Origin: Eledone cirrhosa
Taxonomy: Eukaryota
Assembly: GCA_964016885.1 (NCBI GenBank)
Contig: OZ024742.1
Span: 124,868,001-124,932,000 of the forward strand
DNA length: 64,000 nt
Direction of reading: 5' to 3'
Of the stretch, positions 62,313-63,169 are shown piece by piece. Made by a program: the position numbers and the translations under genes. The notes below the pieces were generated by a model, which was not told the DNA's origin, did no database searches, and worked only from the letters and a program-made list of their open reading frames with translations. Each line of letters starts with the position of its first letter. The stretch's first letter is position 1.

Positions 62313-62626
62313 ATATATATATATATATGTATATGTATATATATATATGTATATGTATATATATGTATATGTGTATGTATATATATATATATATATATAT
62401 ATATATATATATATATATATATATATATATATATATATATATATATATATATATATATATATATATATATATATATATATATATATATATATATATATAT
62501 ATATATATATATATATATATATATATATATATATATATATATATATATATATATATATATATATATATATATATATATATATATATATAATATAAGATCA
62601 AAGGATGGTTAAAGGAGTTCAATATA

Positions 62627-62693
62627 TTTTATTATGCGCATTTCAAAAACAAACATCATCAAACAATAATATTTGTGTTTTCATCAGATAAAA
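62627..62693 (-). ncRNA. Hammerhead ribozyme (mirror copy)
   Basis: Exact reverse complement of 62818-62884. Confidence 0.8.
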
Positions 62694-62817
62694 CAGGAGA
62701 ACATGATATGAAGGCTAAAAAAACACTTGTTGATAGTGCAGTTTTAAATCAACATATGTTGATTTAAAACTGCACTATCAACAAGTGTTTTTTTAGCCTT
62801 CATATCATGTTCTCCTG

Positions 62818-62884
62818 TTTTATCTGATGAAAACACAAATATTATTGTTTGATGATGTTTGTTTTTGAAATGCGCATAATAAAA
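62818..62884 (+). ncRNA. Hammerhead ribozyme, intact
   Basis: ttttat CTGATGA aaacacaaat...gtttgttttt GAAA TGCGCA TA ataaaa; 6-bp stem I; palindromic stem III; AUA triplet. Confidence 0.82.
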
Positions 62885-63169
62885 TATATTGAACTCCTTT
62901 AACCATCTTTTGATCTTATATTATGCATACTCCAGTCCCACAAACTGTAGAGTGCTTCTTATCCGATATCTGCATTGCTTTATTGTACTACAATAAAACT
63001 CACCTCCTACATATATATATATATATATATATATATATATATATATATATATATAAATATATATATATATATATATATATATATATATATATATATATAT
63101 ATATATATATATATATATATATATATATATATATATAAATATATATATATATATATATATATATAATAG

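Follow-up and report, generated by a model that had tools for sequence, protein, structure and literature searches.

A near-perfect palindrome in the Eledone cirrhosa genome is a probable head-to-head insertion of a hammerhead-carrying Hydra-clade Penelope-like element

Penelope-like elements (PLEs) are described as inserting into (TA)n targets as inverted 5'-truncated copies that carry a tail at one end (PMC8557442). The description of the Hydra clade by Craig et al. (2021, PMC8557442) gives it a single ORF with GIY-YIG, RWK, DKT rather than DKG, a CxCX5C linker, and CxxC and CxH motifs. Dual hammerheads 100-700 bp apart on opposite strands are described in Schistosoma and ascribed there to truncated PLEs (PMC4209133). 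Cervera and De la Pena term the G-C pair at hammerhead positions 10.1-11.1 highly conserved. Frangieh et al. (2024, PMC11167929) found that the purified protein of an Anolis Poseidon PLE (PAc) cuts both DNA strands in vitro and extends them. Reverse transcription by PAc starts at two internal sites whose interval corresponds to the tail, and the in vitro reaction does not require the hammerhead (PMC11167929). The window analyzed here is a 64,000-nt stretch of the Eledone cirrhosa genome (contig OZ024742.1), and all positions are counted from its first letter. It contains a palindrome that is probably a further example of a known ribozyme-carrying Hydra-clade PLE.

The palindrome spans 62587-62924 and consists of two 169-nt arms with 0 nt between them that match at 168 of 169 positions. 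On the minus strand, the left arm (62587-62755) copies parent unit positions ~3474-3643. It carries no tail, and ATAATATAAGATC forms its outer end. The right arm (62756-62924) is a plus-strand copy of the same parent segment. Aligned by blastn to the reference unit (L031:1317-5042, 3726 nt), the left arm matches 3473-3643 at 94.8% and the right arm with its tail matches 3473-3726 at 96.5%. The tail (62925-63012, plus strand) is present on the right side only and consists of parent 3644-3726 plus TACAT, for a length of ~83-88 nt. Target DNA borders the insertion on both sides, as a (TA)n microsatellite with some TG interruptions on the left (62305-62586) and a (TA)n microsatellite on the right (63013-63165). 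The axis reads AACAT|ATGTT (62751-62760). The CATATG at its center (62753-62758) is native to the parent, where it stands in the context ...CTTTTCAT|ATGTTGA... (L032, L039). The sole mismatch between the arms is 62603 G versus 62908 T, and the locus at C1:9943056-9943476 lacks it. A second locus is 100% identical to the window copy over 252 + 169 nt. An earlier note on this DNA had described a near-perfect 338-bp zero-loop palindrome, a complete hammerhead on each strand, and a very recent insertion. The palindrome is real, both arms contain the hammerhead core and stems with the mismatch outside both motifs, and the near-identity of the arms together with the identical second locus marks the insertion as young. 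The distal end of the tail, placed by that note at 63010, is found at ~63012.

The tail contains a predicted 8-bp hairpin (UUUAUUGU-ACU-ACAAUAAA, 62979-62997, plus strand), identified by folding and a hairpin search, that lies 10-15 nt before the distal end of the tail. This hairpin is a possible start signal for reverse transcription. Hairpins of at least 7 bp within 220 nt past the hammerhead occur in 15 of 34 relatives, a count that carries no shuffle control.

The plus-strand hammerhead motif is type I, occupies 62816-62886, and was identified by its layout together with a descriptor, by folding, and by the covariance model R1. At the three-helix junction, its catalytic core comprises CUGAUGA (62824-62830), GAAA (62867-62870), and U-H. 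Helix I has 8 bp (62816-62823 with 62879-62886), helix II extends over 36 nt (62831-62866) with 15 pairs and one C.U mismatch, and helix III is the palindromic AUGCGCAU (62870-62877). The predicted cut is after A62878. The mirror-image motif on the minus strand (62625-62695) has its CUGAUGA box at 62687-62681 and a predicted cut after base 62633. A relaxed descriptor found exactly 2 sites in the window compared to 1 match in 200 dinucleotide shuffles, and it matched 16 of 77 relatives' loci compared to a shuffle mean of 0.01. R1 was built from 8 distant relatives only, and the window family was excluded. Its top two matches in the window are 62814-62888 on the plus strand and 62623-62697 on the minus strand, each with 26.2 bits and an E of 1.5e-5. 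R1 also matched 41 of the 77 relatives' loci, and 53 of the 57 matches lie on the ORF strand. Two direct hammerhead copies ~2.4 kb apart around the ORF are found in 12 relatives' loci, a spacing seen in metagenome relatives. In alignment A4, which was fitted to the model, 90% of the cells are paired compared to 59% after shuffling, and there are 254 double-sided changes compared to 80. The covariation score in this fitted alignment is 0.571, compared to 0.150 for shuffled sequences and 0.07-0.12 for slid partners. Every arm that is long enough carries a type I hammerhead. Core conservation within the family was excluded as evidence because the family is too young and the 30-mer used for sampling covers the CUGAUGA box. 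These sequence comparisons support the hammerhead as a real feature of the family.

Helices I and II form in the MFE fold of an 81-nt region. Cofolding of two copies gives an 8-bp intermolecular helix III (-34.9 versus 2 x -11.4 kcal/mol), and the counterparts of helix III in the relatives are CAAATTTG, CAGCTG, CTAATTAG, and similar sequences. The hammerhead is predicted to function in dimeric form via the palindromic helix III. The earlier note had also suggested a kinetic choice in transcripts between self-cleavage and a double-stranded hairpin that ADAR or Dicer might process, as well as cruciform formation in the DNA. The competing hairpin is a computed fold of the whole transcript (169 bp, -278 kcal/mol), and the suggested outcomes are hypothetical. 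The hammerhead shares with the PLE hammerheads described in the literature the type I topology, the complete core, a short palindromic helix III that permits a dimer, a large helix II, and a location in a repeat flanking the ORF; pairs on opposite strands have likewise been noted for PLE hammerheads (PMC4209133). It differs from those descriptions in having A-U rather than the usual G-C at 10.1-11.1, an exceptionally long helix II, and no clear bulged base between 9 and 10.1, and in being unseen by the Rfam models. Among 51 distinct sequences in A4, the 10.1-11.1 pair is GC in 24, GU in 6, AU in 4, and another combination in 16. A search of the window with Rfam at the gathering score gave 0 matches, and no Rfam hammerhead model matched 62560-63030 (471 bases) at E<=10. 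The 55 Rfam matches at E<=10, to miRNA, snoRNA, and sRNA families, all score far below gathering and are long-hairpin artefacts, and a microRNA reading was rejected.

The earlier note had proposed a search for the autonomous parent with the tail, and a search with the arm and tail found one. In the reference locus L031, an 821-codon frame contains YRDD and, at its C terminus, an (I/V)Y...Y(I/F)G block, and long family copies carry an ORF of ~800 aa with the defining motifs of Hydra-clade PLEs. A tandem junction in L034 (...CTCACTTCCTACAT|TAACTTGCTCC) has the tail continuing directly into the unit start upstream of the ORF. The ORF was aligned with 21 homologues (alignment A1). The YRDD and FDxxxFYPSI blocks show little or no variation. 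RW(K/R) appears as RRLRWT or MRWKAFF, DKT as (A/S)DKT(T/N)N, the CxCX5C linker as CNCRIKNKC, CxxC as CNLCLNEK, and CxH as C(L/R)H at the C terminus. The C-terminal block reads (I/V)Y..(9-13 aa)..Y(I/F)G.T...FK.R...H, and its two halves have no Cys between them. The RWK, DKT, CxCX5C, CxxC, and CxH motifs of the Hydra clade, as given in the text of PMC8557442, are all present in A1. The agreement with that clade description extends to the single ORF, the C-terminal putative GIY-YIG-type block without cysteines between the core halves, DKT in place of DKG, and CxxC/CxH near conserved E and N (PMC8557442).

Pfam found 0 families at 0.01 in three long ORFs including P0001, and just noise at E<=10. 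The RVT_1 family matched 1 of 22 homologues (3e-4), and GIY-YIG matched 1 of 22 homologues (1.2e-3) and 1 of 37 relatives (2.2e-3), all below the curated thresholds. A PDB sequence search with P0001 and profiles A1 and A5 gave chance-level matches alone. At E<=0.001, a search of a representative library returned 40,933 proteins, which makes this a very large family. GIY-YIG, RVT_1, HTH_animal, and DUF8422 are the domains found in the closest ESM-Atlas clusters; RVT_1 is present in 18-77% of the members of the neighbor clusters, and PF01541 is present in 16 of the 30 nearest named clusters (query residues 655-821). The ORF was unrecognized by the Pfam and PDB sequence searches, and its assignment as a putative RT/EN draws on the motifs, the language-model look-up, and the published clade description.

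Genome copy numbers were counted by exact pattern matching with a 30-mer of the arm and the 36-bp center. The arm 30-mer has 5214 + 5171 = 10,385 exact matches in the 3.0-Gb genome. The exact 36-bp center occurs at 563 loci with differing flanks, and 1210 + 1141 arms read through the center into parental sequence. The window palindrome is therefore ordinary for this genome, one of hundreds of near-identical ribozyme-carrying PLE stub insertions that target TA repeats, and not a singular event.

Insertion architecture was determined in 120 arm matches sampled from the window and the initial 56 Mb of contig C1, drawn with an exact 30-mer overlapping the CUGAUGA box. The sample contains 96 arms in 48 pairs and 24 arms left unpaired by a 300-bp rule. 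Almost every sampled insertion is a pair of 5'-truncated copies arranged head to head. The tail is on exactly one arm in 43 of the 48 pairs (binomial P 6.7e-9 versus independent choice), since parent position ~3643 is the end of one arm and 3726 that of its partner. A TA-rich flank is found on at least one side of 40 of the 48 pairs and on both sides of 22, compared to 4.2% of random 40-mers of the window. The inner ends of 39 of the 96 arms fall in a hot spot at reference 3470-3478, 41 arms are longer, and 16 are shorter; the hot spot is the native CATATG of the parent. Arm lengths vary continuously, like 5' truncations, and the junctions between arms are overlaps of 1-8 nt or fillers of 1-7 nt. 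Arm identity within pairs has a median of 99.4%, and 14 of 34 pairs are identical; the mean between pairs is 96.1%. The asymmetric pairs include cases in which the tailed arm is the shorter one (for example, 3652 versus 3474, 1706 versus 315, and 3115 versus 2121). The predicted cleavage site (reference 3599) is not the starting point of any of the 96 sampled arms, which argues that cleaved RNA is at least not the usual template and that the hammerhead is probably dispensable for insertion.

The (TA)n insertion, the hammerhead, the inverted 5'-truncated copies, and the one-end tail agree with the description of Hydra-clade PLEs (PMC8557442). Several quantities differ from it. A long 3' UTR with ~220-bp internal repeats brings the unit to ~3.7 kb, compared to 'generally <3 kb' for the clade, a figure worded as a tendency. 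The tail is ~83-88 nt compared to the published 30-40 bp. At >10,000 arms the copy number is very high, and the sharp 5' hot spot produces hundreds of identical perfect palindromes, unlike the Hydra clade as it is described (PMC8557442). The arms also resemble animal non-LTR retrozymes (PMC7229834; bioRxiv 10.64898/2026.07.22.740005) in being short, non-coding, hammerhead-bearing, and related to the PLE pLTR. Retrozymes are described as head-to-tail tandem arrays that give circular RNAs, whereas here there is one inverted unit per strand and no tandem repeat. A retrozyme identity was rejected: the window has only two family motifs, which are inverted, and the sampled insertions are nearly all opposite-strand pairs.

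These data indicate, with a probability of roughly 0.8, that the 3'-terminal segment of a Hydra-clade PLE was recently inserted head to head into (TA)n as the short element at 62587-63012, likely via double-strand-cut priming. The element's enzyme would cut both strands of the (TA)n target, and each DNA end would prime reverse transcription of the element RNA. The two arms would then be two cDNAs that started at two fixed RNA sites, one per DNA end. Run-off cDNAs ending in ...CATAT(G) could anneal because these ends are self-complementary, and subsequent fill-in would yield the zero-loop palindrome. Because the hot spot lies in an initiator-like TCA(+1)TAT context, it may be the mRNA start of the element. 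The hot spot is equally explicable by the copying of a palindromic master copy. More tentatively, each stub may be the fossil of one coupled reaction, with a fixed and distinct reverse transcription start for each break end and cDNAs that run to a capped 5' end at A3474. In LINE-1 twin priming, two cDNAs made from both ends of one target break likewise give an inverted structure; there, one portion of a single copy is inverted, and an internal deletion or duplication accompanies it. The insertions described here differ in consisting of two copies of one 3' segment with their 3' ends outward and distinct fixed start sites.

The biochemistry of PAc (PMC11167929) provides a direct comparison. The AT-rich target is common to both systems. 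Extension of both strands and two internal reverse transcription starts that span the tail would, judging from the insertion sequences, be shared as well. The hammerhead lies upstream of the start sites in both and is, here probably, not needed for insertion. PAc showed no strand preference between its start sites in vitro (PMC11167929), whereas one of each is found in 43 of 48 insertions here; the strict one-of-each rule is thus unexplained by the published data. The PAc start sites are inside the ORF (PMC11167929), whereas those in this family are upstream of the first ATG.

In the most probable alternative, the palindromic stub is a non-autonomous element in its own right. Transcription of a few master palindromes would be followed by reverse transcription of the hairpin RNA in one pass from the tail, and the identical centers and one-sided tail would be inherited and not remade each time. 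This would account for the sharing of the exact center by 563 loci, for different loci that are up to 100% identical over all 421 nt, and for the occurrence of both subtypes, CTATCAACAAG and CTATCCACAAG, as zero-loop palindromes. Non-autonomous PLE derivatives are also described (Chlamys, PMC8557442; bioRxiv 10.64898/2026.07.22.740005). However, the one-tail rule and the head-to-head form hold in long asymmetric pairs with unique junctions, which cannot descend from a short master. Many pairs have one hot-spot end and the other end elsewhere, or center fillers of differing sequence, and this variety points to repeated independent formation. A transcript of the whole palindrome is computed to fold into a perfect 169-bp hairpin (-278 kcal/mol), which would be a hard template for reverse transcription. 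We regard copying from master palindromes as unlikely, although it deserves to be kept in view.

The earlier note had favored self-priming, in which a single cDNA snaps back at the short palindrome and serves as its own template, with the resulting hairpin then fixed as a palindrome. Its first element stands, because the native CAT|ATG of the parent lies exactly at the center, and the frequent zero-loop centers and the near-identical arms within pairs fit such an origin. The self-priming step does not fit. A 6-nt palindrome needs a loop to fold on itself, and the loop here is zero. The hot-spot arm ends also occur where they are joined to unrelated partner positions, and snap-back of one cDNA leaves this common arm-end base unexplained because the partner stops elsewhere or a filler intervenes. 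Simple snap-back further predicts that the tailed arm, made first, is at least as long as the copied arm, and the tailed arm of asymmetric pairs is often shorter than its partner. These points make snap-back distinctly improbable.

A transposase-mobilized foldback element or MITE at the DNA level, with long terminal inverted repeats, would also be a short non-coding palindrome with many copies in AT-rich targets, and arm pairs several kb apart resemble TIRs around an internal region at first sight. We consider it highly implausible: the termini are not inverted repeats because the unpaired tail forms the right end only, the arm lengths are continuous as in 5' truncation, the protein encoded internally has YRDD and is of the PLE Hydra type, not a transposase, and no defined target-site duplication is readable in (TA)n. 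Long-read libraries are known to fail on perfect palindromes. In the Logan contigs of four runs (55-180 nt pieces), none of those listed bridges the palindrome axis with at least 31 nt on both sides, and neither does any table row of RAD-seq raw reads with the same species label; these reads pile up at a restriction site. An assembly or library foldback artefact is nevertheless just as hard to credit, given the same axis at 563 loci with different flanks, the one-sided tail and TA targets that are consistent across loci, a RAD-seq depth of ~3 + 3 in bins immediately to the left of the axis, and the matching architecture described for PLEs (PMC8557442).

The reading as PLE insertions by double-strand-cut priming has consequences for annotation. 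The window palindrome and the hundreds like it should be annotated as Hydra-clade Penelope-like stub insertions, and not as a new fold-back class or a microRNA-like gene. The hammerhead variant, with A-U at 10.1-11.1 and a 15-pair helix II, illustrates what Rfam models miss. The junction statistics are clean because the family is unusually young and abundant; they cover the one-tail rule, a discrete 5' end, and the lack of ribozyme-cleaved RNA as a template, and they bear on PLE integration, which has been studied biochemically (PMC11167929). If each stub does record one coupled reaction, the thousands of stubs would map the promoter start and both reverse transcription start sites of a Hydra-clade PLE, and they would reveal a strand asymmetry that is absent from the sole in vitro study (PMC11167929). 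The genome would also have gained perfect 169-bp hairpin genes by the hundreds, each with a ribozyme in both arms, and these could supply small-RNA pathways.

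The element at 62587–63012 of the window is a head-to-head stub of a Penelope-like element (PLE). Its arms, 62587–62755 (minus) and 62756–62924 (plus), are reverse complementary with 0 nt between them and one exception (62603 G versus 62908 T), which confirms the zero-loop palindrome described in the earlier note. The centre reads AACAT|ATGTT. An unpaired tail, 62925 to about 63012, follows the right arm, and (TA)n surrounds the whole element, with about 280 bp of repeat before it and about 150 bp after it. A complete type I hammerhead layout is also present in each arm. On the plus strand of the right arm, helix I pairs 62816–62823 with 62879–62886 (8 pairs including one G·U), the core consists of CUGAUGA (62824–62830) and GAAA (62867–62870), the 36-nt helix II hairpin has 15 pairs and one C·U mismatch, and helix III is AUGCGCAU. 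The motif predicts A62878 (+) as the cleavage-site base. Position 62869, adjoining TGCGCA (window 62869–62877), is the end point of 1130 molecules in the RAD-seq run X24, so the ribozyme's palindromic helix III appears to coincide with a restriction site used to make that library.

A relaxed hammerhead descriptor, which we wrote after the motif had been seen, matched exactly the two arm sites in the 64-kb window, versus one match across 200 dinucleotide-shuffled versions of it. Rfam reported no hammerhead at gathering score in the window and none at E ≤ 10 in 471 bases. The miRNA-type Rfam matches in those 471 bases (E ≤ 10) were all far under their thresholds and were rejected as a long hairpin scored by hairpin models. 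A covariance model (R1), built from eight hammerheads of distant relatives with the window's own family left out, placed its best two window matches at 62814–62888 (+) and 62623–62697 (−), each with 26.2 bits and E 1.5e-5. Helices I and II form in the computed fold of the isolated 81-nt region, and the 8-bp AUGCGCAU helix III forms in the computed cofold of two copies. The full transcript folds computationally into an overwhelmingly stable hairpin of 169 bp (−278 kcal/mol), within which the motif would be hidden. The transcript geometry anticipated earlier holds: whichever strand is transcribed, the sense ribozyme lies in the second arm only.

The stub belongs to a large family. Exact matching in the 3.0-Gb genome of the window found 5214 + 5171 occurrences of an arm 30-mer, the exact 36-bp centre at 563 loci, and 1210 + 1141 arms that run past the centre into other sequence. 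Most matches form pairs in which the plus copy comes after the minus copy, at a distance of either about 150 bp or 1–5 kb. The autonomous parent that the earlier note proposed to search for was found in long forms with frames of up to 821 codons, the longest encoding protein P0001. In locus L031 one complete unit is preceded by 881 bp of its 3′ region in inverted orientation, and this unit (L031:1317–5042, 3726 nt) serves as the coordinate reference. On it the arm spans 3476–3643 and the tail extends to 3726; ribozyme cleavage is predicted after 3598. Two tandem repeats of ~220 bp, with about 80% similarity to each other, lie in the 3′ UTR of L031 (4330–4757, and again in the inverted left copy at 638–1071); they account for part of the extra length of the unit over its relatives.

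Pfam gave no family for P0001, and PDB sequence and profile searches with the ORF returned noise only. Among 22 homologues, Pfam found RVT_1 in one (3e-4) and GIY-YIG in one (1.2e-3), and GIY-YIG matched one of 37 metagenomic relatives. The sole source-named sequence among 25 word-indexed homologues of P0001 is from Argonauta hians. The ORF family matches 40,933 representative proteins at E ≤ 0.001 and is large and coherent. Its alignment contains RW(K/R), DKT, FDxxxFYPSI, YRDDG, a CxCX5C block, an (I/V)Y...Y(I/F)G...R...H block that has no cysteines inside it, and the motifs CxxC-E and N...CxH. Craig et al. 2021 (PMC8557442) define Hydra-clade PLEs by RWK, DKT replacing DKG, a CxCX5C linker, and CxxC and CxH around conserved E and N with CCHH absent. 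They also list a C-terminal GIY-YIG endonuclease, canonical hammerheads, (TA)n insertion, and aquatic invertebrate hosts. ESM-Atlas neighbours of the ORF carry HTH_animal, DUF8422, GIY-YIG, and RVT_1, and for the C-terminal 167 residues GIY-YIG is present in 16 of 30 named neighbours. We infer RT and GIY-YIG folds for the two predicted domains. The parent of the stub family is a retroelement, and the window element is of a known kind, a Hydra-clade PLE stub with a hammerhead, from a very young and very abundant family.

Hammerheads were surveyed in 77 metagenome-contig loci from a protein-alignment scan, whose encoded relatives are 30–41% identical. The descriptor matched 16 of these loci (shuffle mean 0.01, maximum 1 in 100 rounds), on the ORF strand in 15 of the 16 and mostly directly before or directly after the ORF. 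Helix III is palindromic in the relatives (CAAATTTG, CAGCTG, CTAATTAG, and similar). R1 matched 41 of the 77 loci, with 53 of 57 matches on the ORF strand, and 12 loci carry two direct copies about 2.4 kb apart. In the R1-fitted alignment of matches, 90% of cells pair versus 59% in shuffles, 254 cells are changed on both sides versus 80 ± 8, and the covariation score is 0.571 versus 0.150 shuffled and 0.07–0.12 with slid partners. The 10.1–11.1 pair among distinct sequences is G-C in 24, G-U in 6, and A-U in 4, and the window's family belongs to the A-U minority. Judged by this comparative record, the hammerhead is a clade feature. Cervera and De la Pena 2014 (PMC4209133) describe hammerheads of this type in PLE repeats, in which helix III is short and palindromic, helix II is large, and activity is low except in dimers, and ascribe opposite-strand pairs 100–700 bp apart to truncated PLEs. 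Where the unit of the stub family starts, the tail is succeeded by a TTGCTCC-like motif (TACAT|TAACTTGCTCC, locus L034:825–845), which in an uncontrolled comparison was seen at similar spacing past the hammerhead in the distant relatives L086, L149, L110, L084, and L092.

Insertion architecture was determined from the listed arm-30-mer matches, which extend over the initial 56 Mb of contig C1, and from the window itself. Under a 300-bp rule the 120 matches comprise 48 head-to-head pairs (96 arms) and 24 unpaired arms, several of which belong to long or diverged copies. In 43 of the 48 pairs one arm ends at about 3640–3649 and the other at 3726; the remainder are three two-tailed pairs, one tailless, and one odd. 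Independent choice by the two arms predicts only about 24 such mixed pairs (P = 6.7e-9). A TA-rich flank is present on at least one side of 40/48 pairs versus 4.2% of random window 40-mers. Of the 43 one-tail pairs, 30 carry the tail on the left arm and 13 on the right arm (assembly orientation; G000:C1 0.5–56 Mb plus the window; two-sided binomial P = 0.014), an imbalance that could be due to chance or to a bias of strand or replication.

Inner arm ends range over reference positions 1 to 3652. They concentrate at 3470–3478 (39 of 96 arms), with 41 arms longer and 16 shorter, and none starts at 3599, the predicted ribozyme cut. A minor cluster of six arms at 3618–3652 yields 'tail-only' arms of about 75–110 nt, each with a normal arm as partner. 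The parent reads ...CTTTTCAT|ATGTTGATTT... at the axis, so CATATG is native there. The hot spot context is TCA(+1)TAT, which we take to resemble an initiator and which may mark the mRNA start of the element. Centres vary among copies: some have a zero loop, others contain a filler (for example CATG, AGG, or CATGAT) that separates two arms both starting ATATGTTG, and others join a hot-spot arm to an unrelated position of the partner arm with 1–8 nt of overlap. Over the outer 160 nt, within-pair identity has a median of 99.4% (14/34 pairs identical), and between-pair identity averages 96.1%.

The independently truncated arms, the near-identity within pairs, and the two fixed outer ends fit a published scheme, and the stubs most likely arose by it, with both strands of one cut priming reverse transcription. 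Purified PLE protein cleaves AT-rich DNA and extends both strands; it begins reverse transcription within the RNA at two sites, the stretch between them being the tail, and the hammerhead is dispensable (Frangieh et al. 2024, PMC11167929). Inverted 5′-truncated copies adjoin PLE insertions, with a tail at one end only (Craig et al. 2021, PMC8557442). The main rival, palindromic master copies reproduced as wholes, could apply to the 563 identical centres, but it does not account for long, unique and asymmetric pairs that obey these rules too, and we consider it unlikely. Under the priming scheme, each insertion would use one start site of each kind, which suggests coupling between the two ends, a coupling unseen in vitro for the PLE protein of Frangieh et al. 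2024. Reference segment 3474–3726 lies before the ORF in tandem copies, so the stubs may be run-off cDNAs of the mRNA 5′ leader. Such cDNAs, ending in the self-complementary ...CATAT(G), would give the zero-loop centre by annealing and fill-in, and filler-type centres without annealing. The one-of-each use of start sites and the initiator reading of the hot spot are inferences that go beyond the published scheme.

Related sequences occur elsewhere. With P0001, tblastn found ORF remnants at 28–49% identity at 38386–40242 (+), 48858–46758 (−), 1163–654 (−), and 18291–18599 (+), and thus further PLE families, several in number, are represented in the window. Other hammerhead-like R1 sites lie at 43603–43654 (−) (24.6 bits, E 4.8e-5; a canonical-looking CUGAUGAGUCC...GGACGAAAC) and 32271–32359 (−) (16.9 bits, E 0.018; a 34-nt helix II insert); Rfam reported neither at gathering score. 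A second minus-then-plus pair of R1 sites, 41288–41378 (−) and 41722–41812 (+), is weak (E 0.31 and 0.15) and has surroundings that are mutual reverse complements; the pair probably represents a head-to-head stub from a different PLE family. Sequencing runs labelled as other organisms (X4, X5, X6, and others) contain element parts (0.11–0.61 of sampled words), including one 180-nt X4 contig identical to the window over 62847–63010, 40 contigs in X5, and 27 in X6. The family may be common to related species, or these may be cross-contamination.

For this PLE family, the quantitative features worth keeping are the one-tail rule, the sharply defined 5′ hot spot, which coincides with a native palindrome, the lack of arms beginning at the ribozyme cut, and a hammerhead variant undetected by Rfam models.
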